Origin: a virus
Virus genome (UHGV): UHGV-1887975
DNA: 11,593 nt
Reading direction: 5' to 3' (one strand)
In this document: positions 1-11,593 of the stretch, piece by piece
Position numbering within the stretch: position 1 is the first letter of the stretch
How the letters are laid out: each line of letters opens with the position of its first letter
Translations under genes and position numbers: made by a program
Notes under the pieces: generated by a model
Databases searched by the model: none
The model's input: only the letters and a program-made list of their open reading frames with translations
Told to the model about the DNA's origin: nothing

Positions 1-128
1 CATAAAGTAAGGTCAATTACGCCAAAAATGACATTTTCACTGATCCTGATCGTCTTGCCTTATTGAATATGATTGCTATTTGCATTTAAAATCGAGACCT
101 GGTTTTTCTACTGAAATGATTATGACTT

Positions 129-141
129 CAATGACCCTTGA
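129..141. repeat. 13-bp exact direct repeat CAATGACCCTTGA, left copy; candidate left attachment-site core
   Basis: Identical 13-mer at 129..141 and 11514..11526, the latter immediately distal to the integrase gene. A single 13-mer match in an 11.6 kb window is not by itself significant. Confidence 0.3.
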
Positions 142-258
142 ATAAAGTCTATTCGGTTTTCTTTAGATGTTCGCCTCACATAATCTTCAAGTGATGTTCC
201 TTACATCTCCCTAGAGCGTTAAGATAGTTAACTGATTGAGTTTTCAGGGTATGAAAGG

Positions 259-924
259 ATGAGCAACACTACTGATTGGGGAAGCATGATAGCCAACATA
301 GTTATGGCTACTACCGCTGTCTGGGCTGCATTCAAAGCTAATGACTGGTTTAAAACCAAGCGTCTTGAGAGTGCTGAAAACTTCTATAAAGAAGTACACA
401 ATCTCCATAAACGTTACTATTCAGCTATCCAATACGTTGAGGATTCAAGAAGAATATTTGATAGTCAGTATGGGTTGCATTCGCCAATATCTGAACCTAA
501 AGACAAGTCATTGCAATGGGAGGTTAAATCGAACTCTTACAAAATCATCGCTGAACTAGATTATCTGGCATCGTCACTACAAATGATGGATGCAATGGGT
601 AACAAACTTAGCCCTAAATCGGCTTCACTGGTTAGTGATATGATGGAAGCACATGGACGATTCTGTAATGATGTGATGAACTTCAATGACTCAGTTTGGA
701 AGGTTATAAGGGCAGGTATAACTGAAGAGAACATCCCACATACGCGAGGCTATGTGAACGGCGATTACATGGCTATCCTTACCAGTATGGATGAACCTGT
801 AAGAATATCTTTTAAGTTAAAAGAAATCAGTTTTAAAGATTTTTACTTACATGAAACTACTATGCAGTCAGTAATAACGAGGCTGAAATCGCTTATCGCC
901 AGAACAGGTAAAAACAGGACATAA
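259..924 (+). CDS. Hypothetical protein, 221 aa, with predicted N-terminal transmembrane anchor
   Basis: Uninterrupted 666-nt ORF. Residues about 10-26 (IANIVMATTAVWAAF) form a hydrophobic helix followed by a charged soluble domain. The AAAGGA purine run abuts the ATG at 259 with essentially no spacer, so the true start may be the in-frame ATG at 286. No recognisable family motif. Confidence 0.55.
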   Translation: MSNTTDWGSMIANIVMATTAVWAAFKANDWFKTKRLESAENFYKEVHNLHKRYYSAIQYVEDSRRIFDSQYGLHSPISEPKDKSLQWEVKSNSYKIIAELDYLASSLQMMDAMGNKLSPKSASLVSDMMEAHGRFCNDVMNFNDSVWKVIRAGITEENIPHTRGYVNGDYMAILTSMDEPVRISFKLKEISFKDFYLHETTMQSVITRLKSLIARTGKNRT

Positions 925-1112
925 ACAGGTTAGTACCTATGCAATTTAACGGTATTTTTCCAAGTATCTATGCAATCCTACACAGATTCTATACAGTATC
1001 GACATAGTTTCCTTTTGGTATAACTTATTGAAATATATAAAGAATCTGTGAAGCCCCTTTTCAGGGTAAACTGTATCGTGTTAGTCGTCCCTCTCTCGAC
1101 TCCTAGAAAAGT

Positions 1113-1142
1113 GCTATATACAGGGCTATATAATGCTATATA
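1113..1142. repeat. Three tandem copies of GCTATATA (starts 1113, 1125, 1135)
   Basis: Direct reading: GCTATATAcaggGCTATATAatGCTATATA, spacing 12 and 10 bp. Contains a TATAAT hexamer at 1129..1134. Confidence 0.5.
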
Positions 1143-2591
1143 GATAGTTGGTCACATGGTGTAACTATCAAACTACTTAACAGTTTCCTACGTGAAAGTT
1201 AGAAAGTGATAGTTATAGTTACCTTGTCAAATCTTCGTAGTCCATTCTTAAAAAATCACTTACAGACACCTTAATATCTATACAGATTTCATGTAGAACA
1301 CGATTAGTGCGTAGAAGAGTCATTATGTTAAAAACGAACTGTATACGTATCAGTACTGATTTATAAGGGTTTTGTGTATTTGAAGATAAGAGGCTATACA
1401 GCACCTTGAGAGCATGTCTTCTAAGTCATTGATACATAAGGTCACAGAAGTTTGTGTCTGTTACAGAGAAAACTGGATAGGACTTCACAGAACTACAAAA
1501 TGTTACAGCTATTGATAGGTGAAATCTTCTTGATAGATGCCTTGAAGTGTGGTGAAGGTTTCTTGAGGTGGAGCTAAACAGATGCTATGAAGAAAGTCAA
1601 TAGTTGGTTATAGATATTTTAACTGCTTTTGCAAAGGGGGTGCTGTATCGTGAATCTGGGGTACTTAACAGCCATCAATCATGAGGTAGATTCTACCGAA
1701 TCAACTGTGTAGATATTTTTTAAGATTATCGGTGAAGGGGGAATGCAGAGGGGGGTACTACGATTTTTATAAAAATTTTCAGAAGCCAAATAACTACTGT
1801 GTATATTTTGCACAATCCTGCCAAACCTCATAGAAAGCTCTGTAGCGAGTTTTAACCCCATTTTTAGGGGTAACCTGTAGGGATGTACCACCCACCTTAA
1901 AATAAAGGGGTAAAATCGCTTAGAATGCGTTACAGAGCGTCTGAGAAGCTATATTCACAGATTTTACTAAAGTCTCAGACTTCTAAGTAGTCTTTTTAAC
2001 GGGAGGGTTCTTTCTCATGTATCACCCTCTCTTCCCGCTAAGTAAGCTACACAGACCTAGAGAACATGCCTTCACAGCATCTATATCAGGTCAGATTTAG
2101 AGGGTTTTGATAGAATTTTCAAAGGTACTTGACAGATAACTATGAAGTTGTTAGGAAGAATTGTTTAACGGGAGGAAAGATACGATATAACCCGAAGGGA
2201 AAGTATCATCTTAACAGTGATTGTAAGAGATACCTGAAAAGCTCCTCTTAACAGAACTACCAAGAAGAGAGGGAACGATAAGACCAGAGGTAGTGACCTG
2301 TTAAATAGTTCGTTTCAAAGCTCTTAAGAGTCTGTTAAGTAAGGGCTATGTGAACAATCTTACCATTTTGTCAATGCTCTTGTCTTTGACCTAAATCAAT
2401 AAAATGTATCGTTTGATATGGTTTTAAGCAAGATGGCTAAAAATCTTTTTAGAGGGGCGCTTCGCTTGTGTCACTATGTTCTTTCTCTCCCTGTCTAAGA
2501 GGGGGGTTACAGAGGTCTTTCAAGTCTCAATAGACAAACCGAGGAACGCAGGAAACCGAGGGAAGAAAAACTATTGTGATTACCCTGAACA

Positions 2592-2625
2592 AGGTCTGTA
2601 AAGGTCGTTTAAGAGGTCGGTTAAG
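2592..2625. repeat. Three tandem AGGTC-containing units of 10-12 bp (AGGTC at 2592, 2602, 2614); iteron-like
   Basis: Direct reading: aAGGTCtgtaa / AGGTCgtttaag / AGGTCggttaag. The last two units are 12 bp and differ at one position. Confidence 0.5.
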
Positions 2626-2749
2626 AAAGGAGCTTCCCTCTCTGGGGTTGTCGCTCTTCTCTCGCTTGGTGGATTGATTAGGGGGTATGTTATACAAGCC
2701 CAACTAAGAAGACCTCTGAAGCTTACCTGTGAAGAAGCTGAACAGCTAT

Positions 2750-2900
2750 TATATTGGGTGATTACAACTCATTGAAAAATAAGCATTTTTAGAAATCACT
2801 GTTAAGGTTGCAGAGTTGTCTGTGAGGAGACTTGTCTGCTCTCTATATTGGGTGGTTACAACTTATTGAAAAATAAGAACTTTTAGAAATCACTGTCAGA
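2750..2900. repeat. Pair of 57-bp imperfect direct repeats (2750..2806 and 2844..2900), 94-bp period
   Basis: Aligned by eye: TATATTGGGTGaTTACAACTcATTGAAAAATAAGcatTTTTAGAAATCACTGT versus TATATTGGGTGgTTACAACTtATTGAAAAATAAGaacTTTTAGAAATCACTGT, roughly 50 of 57 identical. Confidence 0.6.
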
Positions 2901-2998
2901 GAGGTGAATACTTGATAGATACAGCTTTCCGGTTCTGTCAAGTCATTTTTTAATAGATAGCATAAAATGCTAAAGATACCCCTATACCATCACGTACA

Positions 2999-3030
2999 GG
3001 GGGTTTTGAAGGGGGTTTAACGGGGGTCTG
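2999..3030. repeat. Three tandem G5-tract units (GGGGG at 2999, 3011, 3022)
   Basis: Direct reading: GGGGGTTTTGAA / GGGGGTTTAAC / GGGGGTCTGTG, spacing 12 and 11 bp. Overlaps the 3' end of the - strand small ORF. Confidence 0.5.
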
Positions 3031-3193
3031 TGTGGTCATTATCCTTAAGGTCAAGCGTCCATGTACGACCGAACAGTTTAAAGACAACAAGCACTCTGAC
3101 GAGGACGTAGCGAAGTAGCAGGCCTGCAATAAGTCCAATACCTCCACCAGCCCATACATCAGGTGACCCCAATTCTGGAGGGAGATTTACCAT
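3017..3193 (-). CDS. Putative small membrane protein, 58 aa (MVNLPPELGSPDVWAGGGIGLIAGLLLRYVLVRVLVVF...)
   Basis: Internal ATG of the track ORF 3017..3235 at 3191..3193 is preceded on the - strand by AAGGA about 7 nt upstream. It encodes a strongly hydrophobic glycine-rich helix of about 23 residues. It lies within locally GC-richer sequence, antisense to all neighbouring genes. Could be spurious. Confidence 0.35.
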   Translation of the reverse strand: MVNLPPELGSPDVWAGGGIGLIAGLLLRYVLVRVLVVFKLFGRTWTLDLKDNDHTDPR

Positions 3194-3410
3194 TAAATTT
3201 CCTTGTAAGACGCTCTCAATCGCATTCTGACACAAAAAAGTACCTGACCTTATAGTTGACCTGAAGAGGCCATTTAACTCGTTACAGAGCGATTGAAGAG
3301 GTCTGTGTGCAATGCAATAACCATGTGACCACTCTCATAGCCACGCCTCATATTTTACTCTCCCCATAGAACCATTATACCACAGATGTTAATGAAATGT
3401 TAAAAAGTGC

Positions 3411-3439
3411 TTGACATTAGTCTTTGAAAATGCTAGTAT
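3411..3439 (+). promoter_or_regulatory. Sigma70-type promoter: TTGACA, 17-bp spacer, TAGTAT
   Basis: Consensus -35 TTGACA at 3411..3416, 17-nt spacer, -10 TAGTAT at 3434..3439 (4 of 6 to TATAAT), about 48 bp upstream of the ATG at 3488. A TTAACAGAGG word sits at the expected transcription start. Confidence 0.55.
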
Positions 3440-3487
3440 TGTATATAAGTTAACAGAGGATTAACAATTATAAGGACTAGCTTATGA

Positions 3488-4042
3488 ATGAACGACAGAG
3501 AATTTAGAGCGATGCTTCAGGCATCAAGAGAACGCAACAAGCACAACTCCTACGCTTACACAAACAACCCCACCAGCTACGAACTACCAGCCTTTTCCAA
3601 ATCCGAACGTAAAAGCATTGAAGCGGTCATTCGTAGCATTACGCCACGAGGCAGATATATGCCAACACGCAAAACAACAAAGAATAACTTAAAAACTTTC
3701 TTGATGAGTTTTGACAGCTACGAACAATTACCGTCACGAATTGAAGATGTAATTATCGGCACTTGTCGCAGCTTTGGAAGGGATAACTATCACCGGAAAG
3801 TTTTCTATTTGCTTCGAAGCCTTGATGAGATTAACTCAAGCACAGTGACGAGCCATCTTCAAAGACAAGCAACCAGACTTAGCCACGAGCTACCATCTGA
3901 TAAGTATTGCGCTAATTTAACCACCATTTGCAATAAAGTTATCGAGACAATCAATCATCATGTTGGGGTTGGTAATATCAGCCTTACGACCAGTGAGCCA
4001 GACTTTGAATTTGACGTATACGCACAAGCAGAGGAATTTTAA
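3488..4042 (+). CDS. Hypothetical protein, 184 aa
   Basis: First gene after the predicted promoter; AAGGA about 10 nt upstream of the ATG. Basic, Ser/Thr/Arg-rich. No motif I can recognise. Confidence 0.65.
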   Translation: MNDREFRAMLQASRERNKHNSYAYTNNPTSYELPAFSKSERKSIEAVIRSITPRGRYMPTRKTTKNNLKTFLMSFDSYEQLPSRIEDVIIGTCRSFGRDNYHRKVFYLLRSLDEINSSTVTSHLQRQATRLSHELPSDKYCANLTTICNKVIETINHHVGVGNISLTTSEPDFEFDVYAQAEEF

Positions 4043-4043
4043 A

Positions 4044-4325
4044 ATGGGAAATAAACACACACTAACCAGAGTTACAAAGACAGCCTTTGAAGAACTTAAC
4101 CGAATCAAAAACATTACAGGTCTGCCACACTCAGCAGTGATGAAGCTTGCAATTAACCGTGATATTAACGAGCAGGATTTGCTTAATAGTCGTTTAGAGG
4201 CAGCAAGACACCATATCAGGATTAAGCAAGATGACCTTGATAGTCTGAAATCTTTAAATGCTTTTGGACTGGATTTAGCAAGGTTACTAAGTATCAAAAT
4301 TCACAAATTAGCGATGGAGGTTTAA
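4044..4325 (+). CDS. Hypothetical small protein, 93 aa (start moved to the RBS-supported ATG)
   Basis: Track ORF 3960..4325 would overlap the upstream gene by about 80 nt. The in-frame ATG at 4044 is preceded by GAGGAA (4031..4036) and begins 2 nt after the upstream stop. Its stop overlaps the next start (TAATG). Confidence 0.6.
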   Translation: MGNKHTLTRVTKTAFEELNRIKNITGLPHSAVMKLAINRDINEQDLLNSRLEAARHHIRIKQDDLDSLKSLNAFGLDLARLLSIKIHKLAMEV

Positions 4326-4711
4326 TGTATGACTTTTATAAACATCGTGACCATTTGGTAAGATTTGACGGTAAAGTCTGGAAAGACGTAACACAAACCA
4401 ATAAGCCCAAGTTTACCCACCAGCAATTAGCCTCAAGATTTGATATCTGGGCTGAAGCACAAAAAGATAATGGTGATTTCGAGTTTATCAGAGGTTTTGA
4501 TTATGCTTACGAAAGCGACCTTAAAGACGCCATTGAATTAATGGAGAACTTCAACTCTATTAAAAATAGTGACAAGCACAAAGCCAACGGTAACAGATAC
4601 GATAAAGATTTAATCATTGATGCAATCACCAAAGGACAATCACAAAGTTATATTTCTGAGAAATACGGCTTATCACGTAGTCAATACTACAAGATTAAAG
4701 CGTCTGTGTAA
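4325..4711 (+). CDS. Putative DNA-binding protein with C-terminal helix-turn-helix, 128 aa; possible transcriptional activator
   Basis: The C-terminal segment DKDLIIDAITKGQSQSYISEKYGLSRSQYYKIKASV has the classic pattern of a helix-turn-helix as found in small phage activators and sigma region-4-like domains. The start is translationally coupled to the upstream gene. Family assignment is an inference. Confidence 0.6.
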   Translation: MYDFYKHRDHLVRFDGKVWKDVTQTNKPKFTHQQLASRFDIWAEAQKDNGDFEFIRGFDYAYESDLKDAIELMENFNSIKNSDKHKANGNRYDKDLIIDAITKGQSQSYISEKYGLSRSQYYKIKASV

Positions 4712-4723
4712 GTCTGTGAGAAT

Positions 4724-4792
4724 GAGTGAGACTCAAAGATGAGCTACCCTATTACTAAGGTGTCTCACTCCCTCTGTAACCCGCATGGTTAC
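4724..4792 (+). promoter_or_regulatory. Two consecutive hairpin-forming inverted repeats in the gap between genes
   Basis: Perfect 9-bp inverted repeat GAGTGAGAC (4724..4732) / GTCTCACTC (4762..4770) with a 29-nt loop, followed by a 6-bp stem GTAACC (4776..4781) / GGTTAC (4787..4792) with a 5-nt loop. No U-tract follows either, so they are not classic terminators. Confidence 0.4.
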
Positions 4793-4849
4793 TGGCCTCA
4801 GAATGGCTATTTTGGCAGATTTAAGATGTGTTTTTATAGGATTTTAAAA

Positions 4850-5173
4850 ATGAATAATTTCCCACTACAGATTTTTATTGATACCGACACCGCCATGATG
4901 ATTCAGGCTTTCACTGATGTAGGTGTTAGCATTGACTTTGATAAGTTGTTAGAGTTAATGGCTGATNATNCNGANANCATCTNTGACTTTATTCACTCGG
5001 TGGAGTTTAACGAGCCTCGAATGATGTTACCAATTACAGACAGTAATATGAAAAGATTGGTTATTGAGCAAACGAACAAATACAGTATTTCCCCAGAGCA
5101 ATTTTTGAAAGGTGCTGTGACAATCCTGTACAGCGATAATATTTTGGTTACGGATTCCGTGAGGGTTCACTAA
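4850..5173 (+). CDS. Hypothetical protein, about 107 aa (alternative start 4739 gives 144 aa); contains ambiguous bases
   Basis: Track ORF 4739..5173. The ATG at 4739 lies inside the hairpin region, so the in-frame ATG at 4850 is preferred, but neither has a strong RBS. Codons 4967..4984 include N, so several residues are undefined. Confidence 0.45.
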   Translation: MNNFPLQIFIDTDTAMMIQAFTDVGVSIDFDKLLELMADXXXXIXDFIHSVEFNEPRMMLPITDSNMKRLVIEQTNKYSISPEQFLKGAVTILYSDNILVTDSVRVH

Positions 5174-5250
5174 TGGGCTTAATAATTGCTTGGACGTTGC
5201 TTGGCTTATTTGTTGGTTGCTGGGTGGGTAACACAGTAAATAAGAATTGA
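5173..5250 (+). CDS. Candidate micro-ORF encoding a 25-aa hydrophobic peptide (MGLIIAWTLLGLFVGCWVGNTVNKN)
   Basis: Its ATG overlaps the upstream stop (TAATG at 5171..5175), suggesting translational coupling. The peptide is almost entirely one transmembrane-like helix. Below the length cut-off of the ORF track and could be fortuitous. Confidence 0.3.
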   Translation: MGLIIAWTLLGLFVGCWVGNTVNKN

Positions 5251-5468
5251 TGTTATCAATCTGTTAAAAGCTGTTGACAAATAACCTTAAGCATGAGATG
5301 ATGGTAATAGGGGGCAACTCTTCCTGAATTAAACTATTAATCATTCTACATCAATGATAGTTATTCTGAGTTGGAAAGGTGCAATGCTTTTCGTCATGGC
5401 CTATTTAGCCCACACTAGATAGGCTATCTCAAAAAGTCTTTGTTTATTCATTGAATCCTTTACAGATT

Positions 5469-5496
5469 GCCCTAATCATGAGTTAGGGCGTTTTTT
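5469..5496 (+). terminator. Rho-independent terminator
   Basis: Perfect 7-bp stem GCCCTAA (5469..5475) / TTAGGGC (5483..5489), 7-nt loop, followed by G then TTTTTT (5491..5496). Confidence 0.65.
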
Positions 5497-5667
5497 AAGA
5501 GTTTTTAAAGAAATTTCTTCACCAGCCCTTTATAGCGTTTTAGTTATCTAGGGCTTTTTCAGCTTTTAAAAAGCATACTTGGCAAACGCTTTTAAGTCTC
5601 TTCTAAGTTCGTAGGCTGTCAGGTGTGCTTTTTAAAAACTGAATATTACTTAGAAGAGGAAAAAACA

Positions 5668-6378
5668 ATGACAAACGATTTATATATTAACGGCAGAAAG
5701 ATTGATAGCTTCGGGGACTGGTCACCACAGGGTGAACATCCGCTACATACTATTCAGCGTAAAGAACACGATGAAAGAATTAAGCTTGAGCAAGAGTTAA
5801 AGATGTCACCAAAGGTAATTTCCTTTGTGTCTCCTGAGCCTCAAGAAATGCCTGATGTATGCAAAACTGAAGCACTATTTAATCTTGAGCGTGAATATTA
5901 CCCACTGCTAAAAGCACAGCGTATTAAACTAGATGACGCTTACAGCAAAGTTACCCTGATGCAATCAGCTATTGAGCCATCAGAATTTGAGATTCAGGAT
6001 GAATTGTCACAGAAACCATTTGTCTATTACAAATATGAAGACAATGATGGTTTTGGTACTTTTCCTGAGAATATCCCAGACGTGATTAATAATCTTCCTG
6101 ATGGATATCGAATTGTGAAGATGGTTAAAGCTTCAAGAGGTGCTGGTCAGTTTATTTTCATGACCGATAGGAGCGATGAAGAACTCTGTGAAATTGCTAA
6201 ACAGAACATCTTAGCATCACGTAACAAGCAACTTGAAAATGTTAAGTTGTATCTCTCAAGAGAGCTTCAGGCTATGAAAGAGCTTGTTAGTGAATATGAA
6301 TCACAGAAGAAGATTGCTATGCAGGCTGATATTGAGCAGTTAGTGAAGATTTCTCAGAAATATGCAAAGGCACTTTAA
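5668..6378 (+). CDS. Hypothetical protein, 236 aa (start moved to the RBS-supported ATG)
   Basis: Track ORF starts at 5623. The in-frame ATG at 5668 is preceded by GAGGA (5656..5660) with 7-nt spacing. Acidic, with a coiled-coil-like C-terminus. No recognisable motif. Confidence 0.65.
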   Translation: MTNDLYINGRKIDSFGDWSPQGEHPLHTIQRKEHDERIKLEQELKMSPKVISFVSPEPQEMPDVCKTEALFNLEREYYPLLKAQRIKLDDAYSKVTLMQSAIEPSEFEIQDELSQKPFVYYKYEDNDGFGTFPENIPDVINNLPDGYRIVKMVKASRGAGQFIFMTDRSDEELCEIAKQNILASRNKQLENVKLYLSRELQAMKELVSEYESQKKIAMQADIEQLVKISQKYAKAL

Positions 6379-6402
6379 CTATGAATTAAAAGGAGGTGGT
6401 GA

Positions 6403-6606
6403 ATGATTGATTTAACAGAACGCTATGAGCTTATTAAAGCAATTAGTGAACGATTGAAAGAACAACCCAACAAACCAAAACGAATCAAATCATCCACCTC
6501 TAAGCAAAAGAATAGAATCAGAAGAATCGCTAAATGGTGTCTTGATAAATTACCAAGTGATTGTCAGATTGTCGGTGAAGATGGTAATTATTATCTGGTT
6601 AGGTAA
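6403..6606 (+). CDS. Hypothetical small basic protein, 67 aa
   Basis: Strong RBS AAGGAGG (6390..6396) 6 nt upstream of the ATG. Lys/Arg-rich centre (KPKRIKSSTSKQKNRIRRIAK). Followed by a terminator. Confidence 0.65.
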   Translation: MIDLTERYELIKAISERLKEQPNKPKRIKSSTSKQKNRIRRIAKWCLDKLPSDCQIVGEDGNYYLVR

Positions 6607-6631
6607 AAAGATTGGTTGGGTAAAAATCAAC

Positions 6632-6672
6632 GGGAGAGATTATCGAGTGACATCGGTAGCTCTCCCTTTTTT
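6632..6672 (+). terminator. Rho-independent terminator
   Basis: Stem GGGAGAG (6632..6638) / CTCTCCC (6660..6666) enclosing a 21-nt loop, followed directly by TTTTTT (6667..6672). Confidence 0.6.
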
Positions 6673-6702
6673 GTATATGAGATAGTCTTCTATCGAATCC
6701 TG

Positions 6703-6801
6703 TGTGCTACGTGATGATTCGGATAAGAATTATCCTCATGAAATCTGTAAAACTAATACCCACACTGAAAAATAGAATTTACGTACAACACGCTTAAAGA
6801 G
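6703..6801 (+). promoter_or_regulatory. Upstream regulatory cassette, copy 1: GTGTGCTACGTGA, ATACCCAC-N-AAAAAT, TTTACGTA, CACGCTTAAAGAG
   Basis: The same four blocks occur in the same order upstream of the gene at 9102. This copy carries an extra palindrome GGATAAGAATTATCC (6721..6735) between the first and second blocks. Confidence 0.55.
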
Positions 6802-6812
6802 GTGAAACATGA

Positions 6813-8936
6813 ATGAGCAAATTCACAGTTGATAGTTTTATCGTTGAGCTAGGCTTCAATGAAAACGTTATTAAGGGACTGCAAAGAGTTGAAAAGGCAG
6901 CTTTGCAGTCAGCACAAAGAATTGAAAAGAACCTAAATAAAGGTTTCAGGATTAATACAAAGCAGCTTGATAGTAATTTAACGGCTTCTTTAGGGCAGCT
7001 TGAAAGGAAGTTTAATAAGGCCTTTGACAAGATTGAACAGAGAGCAAGAAATACTAAAGCTTTCCAGTTTACCACCAGATTTAATGACACTGTTAATCCT
7101 CCAAAACAACCAAGACAGCCACGAATTAGCGGAAACAGAGCAATCACAGCAGCTTACTCAGCGAATATGAGCAAGCTAAAAGGCCTTAACCCAATTGTCG
7201 AGAAATACATTAAGAGTCAGTTTTACGGGCTATCTGCTAAAGCCGGGTCAATGGATTCTTCAAAATTCAATGAGAAGTTAGCTCAGTTAAACGCTTCAGT
7301 CAGAGAAGCAATTGCTAAAGCCAGAGGTCATACATCCACCAGCATTAATGGTGACAGAGCAGCTAATAGTCTTGATAACCTGTCTTCAGCAGCAGTTAAA
7401 ACAGCAGGTGCATTTATCTCAATGCAGGCTGTATTAGCCAGTTATCAGAAGATTATGGAAATTGGTTTACAGCGTGCAAGTGCTGAACGTTCAATTGATT
7501 TCGTATTTGATAAAGATGCAGGTCAGGTAAAAGAGTTCACAAAGTCATTAGCTCAAACAACGGGTTTAGATATCGCTGAACTGCAATCACAGTTTGCTGG
7601 TTTTGGTGCTTCAGCTAAAGAGTCTATGGGTATTCAAGGTTCTGAAGAACTTTTTAAAAATATGATTGGCTATGCTCGTCTGATGGGGAGAAGTGAAGAA
7701 GAGATTAAGCGAGCACTGACAGCATTATCACAGATGGCTGGTAAGGGTCAGATTATGGCTGAAGAGCTTAAGGGGCAACTGGCTGAAGCTGTTCCTGGTA
7801 TGGTTCAGGTATTCGCTAAAGCAACCGGAAAGACTGAACAGGAATTATTTGATGCCATGAAGAAGGGGGCTTTAAAATCTGCCGATACTCTTCAGAAGGT
7901 CACTCAGGAACTGAATAAACAAATCACCGCTAAAGGTGGCTGGAAAGCCATTTCAGAAAGTACTCAGGCACAACTAGGGAACTTGAAAAACTCTTGGAAT
8001 ACCACGCTTGATAGTATCTTCAGAGGTTCTGAAAATGGTCTGCAAGATTTTACACGAAGCCTAACAACGCTTTTAAACGCTCTTGGTGGAAGTGGTAAAA
8101 GTCTTGGTGAATCTCTTGGTAGTCTCATGACTTCTATGTCACATGGTGTCGATAGTCTGACCGATATTAGTTACAAGGTGCGAGCGTTCTTTGATGAGGT
8201 GACATTAGCTTACCGTTCACTAAATGACACTCAGAGGAAAATTGTTGATGGTTTATCTGATGGGTTAATTGATGGTTTGAAGATGCTTGCTGTGGCTGTT
8301 ACTGCTCAAAAGGCTGCAAATGTAGCTGGAGGCTTGTTAAACCTTGCAAATGCTGTTACTTCATTCGGTGATGCTGTTAATAAAGCTAAAGCTGGCAAGG
8401 CTGGTTCTTCAGGTGGTGCGCTAAGTAAAGTCGGTAGAGTTGTCCTTTATGCTGAGTTGGTAAACTTTGCTCTTGATAATTTAAACCCTGAAGCAGCTAA
8501 GAATCCGAACTTACACCAATCAGGTATTGGTACAGAAACAAACTTCAATCCTGAATACAAAGGCGATTCTAAACCAAACCAAATTAATGAGGGGTGGGCT
8601 AAGATTGGTAGTTCTATCGCTGACTGGTTTAATGGTGCAGCTAATAAAATTGCTAACTTACAAGAACCGATGAATAACTTCGTAAATAACACACAATCAA
8701 CTCCACCAGCTATCGACACGGTGAATATCAATGCTCAATTAGCTATGGCTGTATCAGAGTTAGGAAGAAAGGTTGATGCTTTAACAGTAGAAGCTCGGAA
8801 GCCTTTATCAGTTAATATCAAAGGTGAAGCAATTGTTAGGCCGGATGAGCCATCTTTCTTTAATTTCAATCAATCAGCTAATGACCAGTTCACGCAGGAT
8901 ATGCTCTTAAGTTCAAGCTATCCAGAGGAAGAATGA
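6813..8936 (+). CDS. Tape-measure-domain protein, 707 aa (putative phage tail length tape-measure protein)
   Basis: The central segment GYARLMGRSEEEIKRALTALSQMAGKGQIMAEELKGQLAEAVPGMVQVFAKATGKTEQELFDAMKKGALKSADTL matches, as I recall it, the conserved tape-measure signature of lambda gpH-type proteins. N-terminus is coiled-coil-like; C-terminal third is Asn/Gln/Ser-rich low complexity. RBS AGAGGTG about 10 nt upstream. Confidence 0.75.
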   Translation: MSKFTVDSFIVELGFNENVIKGLQRVEKAALQSAQRIEKNLNKGFRINTKQLDSNLTASLGQLERKFNKAFDKIEQRARNTKAFQFTTRFNDTVNPPKQPRQPRISGNRAITAAYSANMSKLKGLNPIVEKYIKSQFYGLSAKAGSMDSSKFNEKLAQLNASVREAIAKARGHTSTSINGDRAANSLDNLSSAAVKTAGAFISMQAVLASYQKIMEIGLQRASAERSIDFVFDKDAGQVKEFTKSLAQTTGLDIAELQSQFAGFGASAKESMGIQGSEELFKNMIGYARLMGRSEEEIKRALTALSQMAGKGQIMAEELKGQLAEAVPGMVQVFAKATGKTEQELFDAMKKGALKSADTLQKVTQELNKQITAKGGWKAISESTQAQLGNLKNSWNTTLDSIFRGSENGLQDFTRSLTTLLNALGGSGKSLGESLGSLMTSMSHGVDSLTDISYKVRAFFDEVTLAYRSLNDTQRKIVDGLSDGLIDGLKMLAVAVTAQKAANVAGGLLNLANAVTSFGDAVNKAKAGKAGSSGGALSKVGRVVLYAELVNFALDNLNPEAAKNPNLHQSGIGTETNFNPEYKGDSKPNQINEGWAKIGSSIADWFNGAANKIANLQEPMNNFVNNTQSTPPAIDTVNINAQLAMAVSELGRKVDALTVEARKPLSVNIKGEAIVRPDEPSFFNFNQSANDQFTQDMLLSSSYPEEE

Positions 8937-8952
8937 TTTCTTATATATATCC

Positions 8953-9026
8953 GTGTGCTACGTGAAATCTTCTGAACGGATATACCCACTAAAAATTATT
9001 TTTTACGTAGCTCACGCTTAACAGAG
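8953..9026 (+). promoter_or_regulatory. Upstream regulatory cassette, copy 2: GTGTGCTACGTGA, ATACCCACTAAAAAT, TTTACGTA, CACGCTTAACAGAG
   Basis: Same four blocks as 6703..6801 in the same order and similar spacing, but without the palindrome insert. Ends about 75 nt upstream of the ATG at 9102. Confidence 0.55.
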
Positions 9027-9101
9027 AAAATACTTATATATCAAAGGTTTGGTTAAAAATGATTAAAATACACTAAGCCTTTGAAATCAAAGGAGAATTT
9101 A

Positions 9102-9872
9102 ATGATTTACACTAATCAGCTTCGTTACAGTGGCAAAGATGGTGTTTACTTCCATCTACAAGGCCAACCAGATAATTTCTTGTCACTATCAGCAACTGAG
9201 AACATGGAATATGACAGCCCTATGATGGTGACCACTCAAAATATGCAATCAGGGCAGACTGTAACAGATAATGTAATGCGTTCACCAAGAACTATTTCAA
9301 TCAGTGGTGTGGTTGTGGTTGGTGAATCCGGTAGTATCCTTATCTCAAGAGATAATAAGCTGGTGGAAAACTTCATAGACACTCTTGAAAACTGGCGTGA
9401 CCAGAAGCAAATTATCTCAGTTGTCTGTAAAGATGGTATTAAGATTGACGACTCAATTATTACAAGCTTTAAAGCCTCTAAAGATGTTGGTATTTCAAAC
9501 GGCCTAAGAATCCAGCTAACTTTTCAGGAAATCAACTTTAAAGCTATCGTAGGGCAAACTGATATTTCGACTGCTACTGGCAAGACCGCTACCACGAATG
9601 ATGGTGGTGCTACTTCTAAGAAGAATACAGGGAATACTACGACAAGTCTTGGAAGCCCTATGCTGACCTGTAAAGAGCTTTTTAGCTATTCGGCAAGTAA
9701 GTTATCAGATGAAGCGCTAAAAGCCCGTGTAACGTGCTCTAAGAGCGTTAGCGTTAAAAATGGTGAGAGCACCTTCACAGCCTCAGCTAATGAGCAAGCT
9801 TCAAAGGTGCTTAAGTCGGGTAATGCTTTACGGAAGTACTCTGTGAATCCGAATAAGAAGGGCACTTATTGA
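9102..9872 (+). CDS. Hypothetical protein, 256 aa; possible tail-associated structural protein by position only
   Basis: The track ORF begins at a TTG (9081). The ATG at 9102 has AAGGAG (9090..9095) at 6-nt spacing. Ser/Thr/Gly-rich. Assignment as tail-associated rests only on its position after the tape-measure-like gene. Confidence 0.65.
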
Positions 9873-9876
9873 GACA

Positions 9877-9899
9877 TAAAAAGGGGCTTCATAGCCCCT
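9877..9899. terminator. Terminator hairpin between convergent genes
   Basis: Perfect 7-bp GC-rich stem AGGGGCT (9882..9888) / AGCCCCT (9893..9899) with a 4-nt loop. AAAAA (9877..9881) on the + strand gives a U-tract after the stem for the - strand transcript (integrase); a weaker A/T stretch follows for the + strand. Confidence 0.6.
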
Positions 9900-9904
9900 G
9901 AAAA

Positions 9905-11425
9905 TTACAGTTGATAAGCGTCAATATCCAGTAGCTCTTTATCAGCAATTTCAAAGATTGGTGACCCATCATTTAGCGGTAACGGGTTTGTAGGTATGGT
10001 TATTTCAGTGTCGTTCTGTAGCGTTACAGTTACCGAATCCTTACCCAATGTCAGCCCCTTTAGATGCTTGGACAAAATCAACTGACACTCGACACGACCC
10101 GCTTTAGTTGTCAGGTCAATATCTTTAAGCTGGGGTAGTTCCTTATCAGTGAGTGAAGCCTTACGCCTCATGTTATCAATCGTGGTCTGTAGCTCTGTGC
10201 GCTTCTGGTTCAGTTCCTTAAGCTGAATTTTTAGTTCATCAATATCATCCATCTCAAGAAGTAGGGCGGTAGCTTTCTTGATTCTGGTTGTGACAATTTC
10301 AACCTCATGCTGTAGAGATGCAATCTTCCCCTCTGCTTCTCCATCATTCCCCACGTCAATCATCCCCAGAAAATTATCAATCATCCACTTATCAAACGGT
10401 TTACGCTTCAACGGAGGAACATCACAGCGACCATCAAGATGGTTATTGCACCGATAAACGCCCTGATACTTATTCTTAGTCCCTGTAGGGTGAACACTAG
10501 CCCCGCACTGACACCTAAACAGACCTTTGAAGATGTTAATCGTTAATGGATTATCACTTGCAGGTGTACGGCCTATACGGTTCTTACCAAGAATCTCTTG
10601 AGCTTTATTGAACGTTGAAGCATCTATAGCGGCTTCGTAGTAGTTCGGTATAGCGGGGCGGTCATTACGTTGTGATGCTGGTAACGTGCCTATCGTTGTC
10701 TCTGACCTTAAGATGGTGCGTACAGAGTGAACACTAAACCCGTTAGCATCTTTACGGCGACTAAACGACTTTATACCGTTGCTTTGAAGGTGACGGGCGA
10801 TGTTATGCAGACTTTCACCACTTAGCAGCAGCTTGAAAATCAGTCTTACAGTCTCAGCGTGTTCATTGAGTTTAAAAGTATCGGGGTCAATCCATCCGGG
10901 AACCATCTTTGTTAAACGTTGTTCACCAGCAAGGGCAAGTTTTGCACGTTGCTCCCATTTCTGAGAAACACGGAAAGACTTCTGCTTAGATTCCTGATGC
11001 GCTATGTAGGCTTTGACACGCTGGATGATTGAGATTCCTAAATCATCGGCTAAAGCATCCTTTGTGTAGATAAGACCATCTTGTAGCGTGTGAATCTCTA
11101 ACCCGTTGCCTAAGATGCGATTCATCAAGGCTTCTGTTTCAAGGTGTTCTAAGCGGCCTATACGGTCGATACTCTCAACAAGCAAAATCGTACCTTCTGG
11201 AAACTCCCCAGACTCAATACGGGCTAACATGTCACCAAACTGACCAGTAAGATGCTTACCTTTGTAACCGGATAGGCCTTCATCACTGAAAGACGCTACT
11301 ACTTGAGCATCGCTATTCTTCTTCAGCCACTGCTTGAACAGGTCGTTTTGTCGTCTGGTTGAATCTGCACCTTCAGCGCCTTGTATAGCTGAACTGTACC
11401 GAAGGTATGTAATTACGCTCCTCAT
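9905..11425 (-). CDS. int: Large serine recombinase (site-specific integrase), 506 aa
   Basis: N-terminal resolvase-type catalytic domain with candidate nucleophilic Ser in YLRYSSAIQ, a D-x-G-x-SG motif (SDEGLSGYKG) and LVESIDRIGR resembling the resolvase DRLGR box. A large recombinase domain follows, then a Cys-rich zinc-ribbon-like segment (CQCG...C...C) and a C-terminal coiled coil. This is the typical large-serine-recombinase architecture. GGGAG RBS upstream on the - strand. Confidence 0.9.
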   Translation of the reverse strand: MRSVITYLRYSSAIQGAEGADSTRRQNDLFKQWLKKNSDAQVVASFSDEGLSGYKGKHLTGQFGDMLARIESGEFPEGTILLVESIDRIGRLEHLETEALMNRILGNGLEIHTLQDGLIYTKDALADDLGISIIQRVKAYIAHQESKQKSFRVSQKWEQRAKLALAGEQRLTKMVPGWIDPDTFKLNEHAETVRLIFKLLLSGESLHNIARHLQSNGIKSFSRRKDANGFSVHSVRTILRSETTIGTLPASQRNDRPAIPNYYEAAIDASTFNKAQEILGKNRIGRTPASDNPLTINIFKGLFRCQCGASVHPTGTKNKYQGVYRCNNHLDGRCDVPPLKRKPFDKWMIDNFLGMIDVGNDGEAEGKIASLQHEVEIVTTRIKKATALLLEMDDIDELKIQLKELNQKRTELQTTIDNMRRKASLTDKELPQLKDIDLTTKAGRVECQLILSKHLKGLTLGKDSVTVTLQNDTEITIPTNPLPLNDGSPIFEIADKELLDIDAYQL

Positions 11426-11488
11426 GGTGATAAACTCCCATGCAATTGATTCTCATTTAAAGATAAGCTTATAACCATTATGGCTAAT

Positions 11489-11526
11489 GCTACAATGCCG
11501 AATAGCTACAATACAATGACCCTTGA
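11489..11526. repeat. Integrase-proximal repeat cluster: GCTACAATG / GCTACAAT / ACAATG, then the right copy of CAATGACCCTTGA; candidate attachment-site region
   Basis: Direct reading of 11489..11526. The 13-mer at 11514..11526 is identical to 129..141. Sequence to the right becomes GC-rich (cctcgccgcttcccctggccgacg...). Confidence 0.4.
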
Positions 11527-11593
11527 TTTACCTCGCCGCTTCCCCTGGCCGACGTTACTTTCGGTCTGCATTCATGGTGCTGTTGTGGCGGGG

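Follow-up and report, generated by a model that had tools for sequence, protein, structure and literature searches.

Most of the known satellites of lytic phages come from Vibrio, and phages of the Felix O1 type find wide use in typing, biocontrol and therapy. The closest described systems to the locus considered here are the PLEs (elements resembling phage-inducible chromosomal islands) of Vibrio cholerae, which carry their own tape measure protein (TMP), chaperone and baseplate hub and form chimeric tails on the lytic myophage ICP1, as was reported only recently (Nature 2026, PMC12987554). The stretch of DNA analysed, UHGV virus genome UHGV-1887975 (11,593 nt, referred to below at its full length as the window), is Escherichia coli chromosome, with a full-length match to strain UTAK-18 at 99.8% identity and is flanked by yciI to the left and tonB to the right (neighbour annotation from RefSeq NZ_CP157132). 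An earlier note on the window, made without database searches, had drawn attention to a 13-bp direct repeat, CAATGACCCTTGA, near both of its ends. These two 13-mers are, with little doubt, the attL and attR cores of an integrative element of 11,385 bp, the distance between the two cores, which was inserted at the tonB start codon by its own serine recombinase. The element itself is probably a PLE-like satellite of strictly lytic Felix O1-type (Felixounavirus/Ounavirinae) myophages.

The repeat is exact at 129–141 and 11514–11526 on the plus strand, as the earlier note had it, and there is no third copy in the window even when one mismatch is allowed. By itself, the repeat has no statistical weight. 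Shuffling the window by mononucleotide yields a mean of 1.8 repeated exact 13-mers, with at least one in 72% of shuffles, so that the original estimate of about one chance match per window was fair; the real window also contains unrelated exact 13-mer pairs at 6702/8953 and 10569/11154. Of 2000 shuffles, only 3 had one 13-mer in both the first and the last 250 bases. It is the comparison with empty sites that decides the matter. Matches to the window flanks are present in 5423 of the 5426 complete E. coli genomes, only a few of which contain the 11.4-kb interior. In records that lack the interior, the flanks are contiguous over 207 bp (141 + 79 - 13), window positions 1–141 being joined directly to 11527–11593. 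A three-way alignment has the empty site tracking the left end through the 13-mer and the right end from the 13-mer on, and the bases just outside the core differ between attL and attR as expected. When the 207-bp empty site was used as a query, an uninterrupted yciI-tonB site was detected in 5193 of the 5423 E. coli genomes; the intact site is missing in about 230 (4.2%), and in the two of these that were listed the match stops at position 141 or 145, on the last base of the 13-mer or shortly past it. The layout of the site is as follows.

1–128, plus strand: host DNA, the yciI-tonB intergenic region with the native tonB promoter, identical to empty sites.
129–141, plus strand: attL copy of the core CAATGACCCTTGA, in which the tonB ATG opens only a 4-codon open reading frame (ORF; MTLE-stop).
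142–163, plus strand: left end of the element and one attP arm, with CTATTCGG at 149–156, the inverted-repeat partner of CCGAATAG, conserved in all tonB-site variants.
11488–11513, plus strand: right end of the element and the other attP arm, with CCGAATAG at 11498–11505; dyad symmetry, perfectly conserved across variants including Citrobacter.
11514–11526, plus strand: attR copy of the core, with the tonB start codon at 11516–11518 (from the sequence and RefSeq).
11516–11593, plus strand: 5′ end of the intact tonB coding sequence, MTLDLPRRFPWPTLLSVCIHGAVVAG... (from the sequence and the RefSeq annotation of the identical locus).
9905–11425, minus strand: large serine recombinase (integrase), 506 aa, with three recognised domains and a match to PHROG 95.

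Because empty sites carry one copy of the 13-mer, and match the window through 141 and again from 11514, the repeat is a duplicated core present at attL and attR. The suggestion that it represented the core of an attachment site, for which a comparison with genomes lacking the element had been proposed, is therefore borne out: the flanks join directly at one copy, the junctions fall exactly at the repeat, a serine recombinase gene lies near attR and the attP dyad falls in the core. The left flank (1–128) is indeed AT-rich, since it is an intergenic promoter region, but the accompanying suspicion that the real left end lay outside the window, in a larger element, has to be abandoned: these bases are native yciI-tonB DNA identical to the empty site, which places the left end of the element inside the window.

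The core reads CA-ATG-ACC-CTT-GA, and its ATG is the start codon of tonB. At attR the tonB frame is intact (MTLDLPRRFPW...), whereas the same ATG at attL gives MTLE-stop only. Joining the element ends rebuilds an attP, ...TGCCGAATAGCTACAATA-CAATGACCCTTGA-ATAAAGTCTATTCGGT..., with a junction that can also be written ...GCTACAATA-CAATGACCCTTGA-ATAAAGTC.... This predicted attP is a 44-bp imperfect palindrome, CCGAATAG-N28-CTATTCGG, in which 14 of 22 positions match, the outer positions doing so throughout (8/8). The best dyad axis runs between core bases 6 and 7 (134|135 and 11519|11520), with the octamers equidistant from the core centre, and the symmetry puts the non-palindromic dinucleotide AC at 134–135 and 11519–11520. 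An imperfect dyad at the crossover within an attP of ~40–50 bp is the layout expected for a large serine recombinase, and the symmetry suggests that strand exchange would take place at the central AC.

The recombinase gene starts 88 bp from the right core, and its 506-aa product carries the complete domain set, namely PF00239 Resolvase (8e-16), PF07508 Recombinase (6e-16) and PF13408 Zn_ribbon_recom (2e-6), together with a match to PHROG 95, integrase (E=2e-77); against PDB it gave no sequence match at E<=0.001. Loci L004–L006, relatives that are 81–92% identical elsewhere, preserve the two arms as well as the two copies of the core; a Citrobacter genome, whose fetched locus stops short of the left end, preserves the right arm and the copy at attR. 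A 13-bp shared core lies at the long end of the range for large serine recombinases; the earlier note was right to remark that a short core suffices for these enzymes, which is no argument against a core of this length. The members with a serine recombinase that is only 34% identical (L019, L027 and L028) occupy a different, third chromosomal site, so that the integration site tracks the integrase, and a further member, L017, sits beside cmoA/cmoB. At their other integration sites these four sister elements have the core operon, TMP and tube initiator found here, and their TMPs are mosaic relative to the window TMP, with 46% identity overall and a nearly identical N-terminal region of ~120 residues. 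It is highly likely that the attachment sites and integrase constitute a standard large-serine-recombinase system, an ordinary feature of known mechanism. Contigs of element length (11.2–11.5 kb) were considered as possible excised circles and rejected, as they are copies integrated elsewhere, with host flanks and no terminal overlap.

Integration would rebuild an intact tonB frame at attR because the core holds CA-ATG-ACC-CTT-GA. The native tonB promoter is Fur-regulated; the promoter-like TTGAAT-18-TAAAAT at 63–92 corresponds to its region, and the insertion would have moved it 11.4 kb from tonB, so that it would now face the left-end cargo ORF (259–924). Transcription of tonB would then start from element DNA, in the 88 bp that separate the core from the start of the integrase gene. 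A conserved candidate extended -10 element picked out by eye, TGCTACAAT at 11488–11496, could drive tonB. At attL, MTLE-stop is followed by the 221-aa cargo ORF, and the cargo gene may have become iron/Fur-regulated.

In size and content the element is consistent with a phage satellite, since its 11,385 bp fall within the ~7–20 kb of that class and it encodes an integrase but no full virion or lysis set. Its recognisable genes are those for a TMP, a tube initiator and the integrase; capsid, portal, terminase, sheath, tube and lysis genes were not detected in it with Pfam and PHROGs. The link to a helper comes from the homology of the TMP and tube initiator to Felixounavirus gp017/gp018, from a 29-mer shared with noncoding phage DNA and from the repeated 8-mer CTGTTAAG, which occur in the following features.

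6813–8936, plus strand: TMP, 707 aa, a mosaic homologue of the Felixounavirus TMP (PF20155, E=7e-20).
9081–9872, plus strand: tail-tube initiator, a Dit-like baseplate protein (PF21821).
930–2975, no strand assigned: ORF-poor region of ~2 kb with CTGTTAAG repeats and phage-shared blocks, and no RefSeq-annotated ORF of at least 60 aa.
1678–1706, plus strand: block A, the 29-mer ATCATGAGGTAGATTCTACCGAATCAACT with the palindrome GGTAGAtTCTACC, identical in phages and L004.
2271–2298, plus strand: block B, GGGAACGATAAGACCAGAGGTAGTGACC, shared with Felixounavirus ORF-free DNA.

In PDB entry 9NDY the element TMP matches Bas63 gp017 (E=1e-66), and the tube initiator matches Bas63 gp018, named 'tube initiator protein' (E=5e-112). 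Aligned with the TMP of phage Si3, the element TMP is 30% identical as a whole; identity reaches 76% in the first 45 aa and 92% in the last 12 (LLSSSYPEEE), against 18–34% across most of the interior. The DNA directly upstream of the TMP start is also phage-like. The tube initiator has 71% amino acid identity to Si3 gp101, which is encoded directly after the Si3 TMP gene, the gene order thus being the same in phage and element, and its gene is 80–84% identical at the nucleotide level to ~160 Felixounavirus records. When all element proteins were compared with the complete Si3 genome by tblastn, the TMP and tube initiator were the only matches. A module of ~74 bp (GTGTGCTACGTGA...TTTACGTA...CACGCTTAA) is found at 6702–6775 and again at 8953–9026, upstream of the TMP and tube-initiator genes respectively, and may represent a shared, perhaps helper-activated, promoter or regulatory element.

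Credible ORFs are missing from the ORF-poor region both in this element and in its relatives, yet the region is 80–86% conserved among them, and parts of it resemble unannotated Felixounavirus DNA. Felixounavirus genomes contain an ORF-free region of 1.7–1.8 kb between convergent gene blocks (Si3 76012–77818). The window holds seven copies of CTGTTAAG against 0.56 expected, six in the ORF-poor region (1176–2806) and one at 9017–9024, and the same motif is the commonest 8-mer (8 copies) of the phage ORF-free region (L007 2750–4471). Phages JLBYU28, pEP20 and BPS15Q2 and element L004 all have block A without a mismatch. Block B recurs, with 0–3 mismatches, in two of these phages, JLBYU28 and pEP20, and in elements L006, L017, L019 and L028. 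Patchy occurrence among element variants and phages argues that these blocks reflect recombinational exchange rather than a universal packaging signal. The phage region is also dense in CTTAAAAG, CTATAAAG and TTGTTAG, and its motifs may be binding sites for a phage protein. A 53-nt direct repeat, 92% identical and 94 bp apart, lies within the ORF-poor region at 2750–2802 and 2844–2896. Searches of the window, the ORF-poor region included, with Rfam (E<=1) and ARAGORN gave no RNA family and no tRNA. Felixounaviruses package DNA with direct terminal repeats, of 581 bp in Pr103Blw (PMC8303462), and the repeat_regions annotated in phage records are short internal repeats. Blocks A and B had been considered as a helper packaging signal, a candidate that was downgraded on account of their patchiness and of terminal repeats that could not be placed.

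Of the 5426 complete E. coli genomes, 150 have the pair of tube initiator and integrase at a coverage of at least 80%, and 512 (~9%) have a match to the tube-initiator gene taken by itself; strains bearing the element include UTAK-18, NCTC9082 and XJ55. Further relatives occur in Citrobacter, and protein matches add Salmonella, Shigella, E. albertii and E. fergusonii; the family and the Ounavirinae have the same hosts (Escherichia, Shigella, Salmonella, Citrobacter). Some copies are disrupted: that of Citrobacter has ~2 kb inserted in its TMP region (L016 reverse complement ~6108–8153), and IS100/IS21, IS3 and IS4 transposases are annotated inside some E. coli copies. No published account of an E. 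coli/Felix O1 satellite or of a tonB-integrated island was found in the openly accessible literature searched. The family appears to be an undescribed and fairly common PLE-like satellite variant in enterobacteria.

The remainder of the element consists largely of genes of no recognised family.

259–924, plus strand: left-end cargo ORF, 221 aa, an orphan at a position that is variable between members.
2979–3002: terminator-like hairpin beside the ORF at 3017–3235.
3017–3235, minus strand: small ORF of 72 aa that includes a hydrophobic stretch and runs leftward from the divergent promoter region.
3374–3439: divergent promoter-like sites, TTAACA-18-TATAAT (minus strand) and TTGACA-17-TAGTAT (plus strand), with the best sigma-70-like scores in the window.
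3488–6606, plus strand: element-specific orphan operon encoding products of 184, ~104–121, 128, 107–144, 236–251 and 67 aa.

The cargo ORF has no match in Pfam, PHROGs, NCBIfam or PADLOC and only 10 representatives among 1.84 billion proteins, and in L006, L019, L027 and L028 its place is taken by other genes, among them a small serine recombinase. Cargo seen elsewhere includes a small serine recombinase (Resolvase + HTH_7) or an annotated AP2/ERF family protein (L006 2204–2752, L019 629–1177, L005 3353–3877). As small serine recombinases have been used as markers of defence loci in a recent paper (PMC13552941), the left-end slot may be a defence hotspot. The 72-aa ORF is annotated in relatives as hypothetical proteins of 61–62 aa.

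Seven orphan ORFs gave nothing significant in Pfam, PHROGs, NCBIfam or PADLOC; the only matches were weak ones to HTH_28 (0.003) for the ORF at 4325–4711 and to small terminase P27 (0.013) for that at 3960–4325. The products of the operon have no homologue in phage Si3, and the 67-aa ORF upstream of the TMP gene shows no similarity to a phage tail assembly chaperone. The families of the 184-aa and 236-aa proteins are restricted to Escherichia, Shigella and Salmonella, and neither protein has a homologue in 50,697 phage records, bar one weak match. The AlphaFold2 model of the former resembles uncharacterized phage proteins only, and that of the latter consists mostly of long helices. The 236-aa protein (5668–6378) is called 'transposase' in RefSeq, a name carried by thousands of relatives, and has neither a transposase nor any other domain; the name looks like a propagated mis-annotation. 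Between 5250 and 5620, before the gene for this protein, are a strong promoter-like site (TTGACA at 5274), a terminator-like hairpin (5468–5490) and phage-type motifs in reverse complement, CTTTACAG, CTTTATAG and CTTTTAAG. Six ambiguous bases (n) at 4968–4984 (ggctgatnatncnganancatctntgac) interrupt the ORF at 4739–5173, whose translation contains X residues because of a low-quality stretch in the source assembly.

If the element is a satellite, as seems probable, infection by the helper would trigger its excision, and it would be packaged in helper capsids on chimeric tails. Its TMP and tube initiator would derive from adjacent genes of the helper, with the termini that contact other tail parts conserved and the interior diverged, and its ORF-poor region would share modules and the repeated 8-mer with the ORF-free region of the helper. 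Several observations weigh against the overall account of an inserted satellite. The helper capsid has room for 86 kb, far more than the 11.4 kb of this element, and a mechanism for the mismatch was not identified. No replication initiator, small terminase or capsid-size redirection gene, and no recombination directionality factor, was recognised with Pfam, PHROGs and NCBIfam, and Foldseek comparison of the AlphaFold2 models of the 184-aa (pLDDT 73) and 236-aa (pLDDT 67) proteins with PDB and BFVD gave no informative match. An exact-match search of IMG/VR and JGI metagenome contigs found no attP junction or excised circle, with the result that excision is not demonstrated; such junctions would be rare, so the search is uninformative. 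The shared blocks are patchy, with no block A in phages Si3 and heid or in several variants of the element, and the terminal repeats could not be placed relative to the shared region in phage records that were opened arbitrarily or had assembly overlap only. A consensus promoter scan reported none for tonB at attR.

The principal rival, clearly the less probable of the two but to be taken seriously, accepts the attachment sites as real and regards the element as an integrative defence island that is not packaged, its TMP and tube initiator acting as dominant-negative decoys that poison Felixounavirus tails. Interference with tail assembly is a known strategy of mobile elements (PMC11364771; Rta, PMC12987554), conserved termini with a divergent interior suit a poisoning subunit as well as a replacement, the left-end cargo slot is variable, and packaging and replication genes were not recognised. 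Defence would nevertheless leave unexplained an ORF-poor region that shares modules and a motif with the phage ORF-free region, as well as the spread of the family to several sites and genera, and the two lifestyles are not exclusive, as PLEs do both. Next, and improbable, comes a decaying, immobile Felix O1-related prophage remnant between real attachment sites. The presence of only two recognisable phage structural genes and the failure to find an excised form would suit such a remnant; against it stand the compact architecture with intact ORFs and the same boundaries in ~150 genomes and another genus, the several integrases and sites used by the family, and the 184-aa and 236-aa genes with their near-total lack of phage counterparts. 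In addition, the TMP and tube initiator are mosaic, not degraded, and known Felixounaviruses are strictly lytic and have no integrases (Si3 annotation).

Very improbable is the view that the repeat is the target-site duplication of a transposase, with CTATTCGG and CCGAATAG as terminal inverted repeats. A target-site duplication does give the same pattern, one copy in the empty site and two around the insert, and there is an 8-bp inverted repeat near both ends and an ORF that RefSeq names 'transposase'. That ORF, however, has no transposase domain in Pfam, NCBIfam or PHROGs, nor a precomputed Pfam domain in 120 listed relatives; the inverted repeats lie 7–8 bp inside the ends, not at them; every diverged variant with this recombinase shares the site, and a different recombinase goes with another site; and a complete large serine recombinase lies beside attR. 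That the 13-mers are a chance repeat, like those in the shuffled window and the other pairs in the real one, with the true boundaries elsewhere and possibly left of the window, is scarcely credible, being refuted by empty sites that join exactly at the 13-mer, by the native chromosomal origin of bases 1–128 and by the same junctions in all diverged variants and in Citrobacter (on the attR side).

Should the satellite interpretation hold, a family abundant in E. coli and Salmonella and aimed at Felix O1-type phages would provide a tractable model of tail hijacking and could explain strain-to-strain differences in resistance to these phages. The chances appear evenly balanced that the element is the first to be recognised from a widespread family of lytic Felix O1-type phage satellites that combines chimeric tails and a mimic of the ORF-free region with a tonB gene rewired to a satellite promoter and a Fur promoter turned over to cargo. 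Insertion at the tonB start codon may alter iron-regulated TonB expression and, through it, sensitivity to TonB-dependent phages and colicins. The att sites define a new attP/attB pair for a serine integrase, one whose natural target lies in E. coli K-12-type chromosomes, and this pair is a possible genome-engineering tool. The delimited element matters more than its attachment site, which is ordinary.

As regards integration, the element shares with phiC31, Bxb1, TP901-1, A118 and SPbeta SprA the Resolvase/Recombinase/zinc-ribbon layout of the enzyme, an integrase gene adjoining the att site, a short core present in attL and attR and once in the empty site, an attP of ~44–50 bp with an imperfect dyad at the crossover, and insertion into a gene whose coding sequence is restored. 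It differs from phiC31-type systems in its target, the start codon of tonB, in that the gene is cut from its promoter, and in that a directionality factor was not identified. With PICIs (phage-inducible chromosomal islands), cfPICIs (capsid-forming PICIs) and P4-like satellites it has in common an island size of 10–15 kb, an integrase, att repeats, a variable cargo slot and the same host species. The presumed helper here is lytic, whereas theirs are temperate, and no tyrosine integrase, AlpA, primase/replicase, small terminase, Psu/Sid/Delta, alpha primase or HK97-type capsid module was detected with Pfam, PHROGs and NCBIfam.

The V. cholerae PLEs are closer. Like them, the element is a small island (11.4 kb here, ~18 kb in PLE) with a large serine recombinase and, as its homologies suggest, a lytic myophage helper; it encodes its own TMP and a baseplate-proximal protein like that of the helper, has no capsid, sheath or tube genes and is made up mostly of orphans. 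No domain corresponding to the PLE hallmarks of a RepA_N initiator with an iteron origin, the TcaP scaffold or a tail assembly chaperone was recognised in any element ORF with Pfam, PHROGs and NCBIfam. The hosts are Enterobacteriaceae and the presumed helper is a Felixounavirus, the insertion is in tonB where PLE uses Vibrio cholerae repeats, and the second tail gene encodes a tube initiator where that of PLE encodes the hub BhuB. Judged by gene content as read from the sequence, the element is one that would work in the manner of a PLE, and it is not filed as one.

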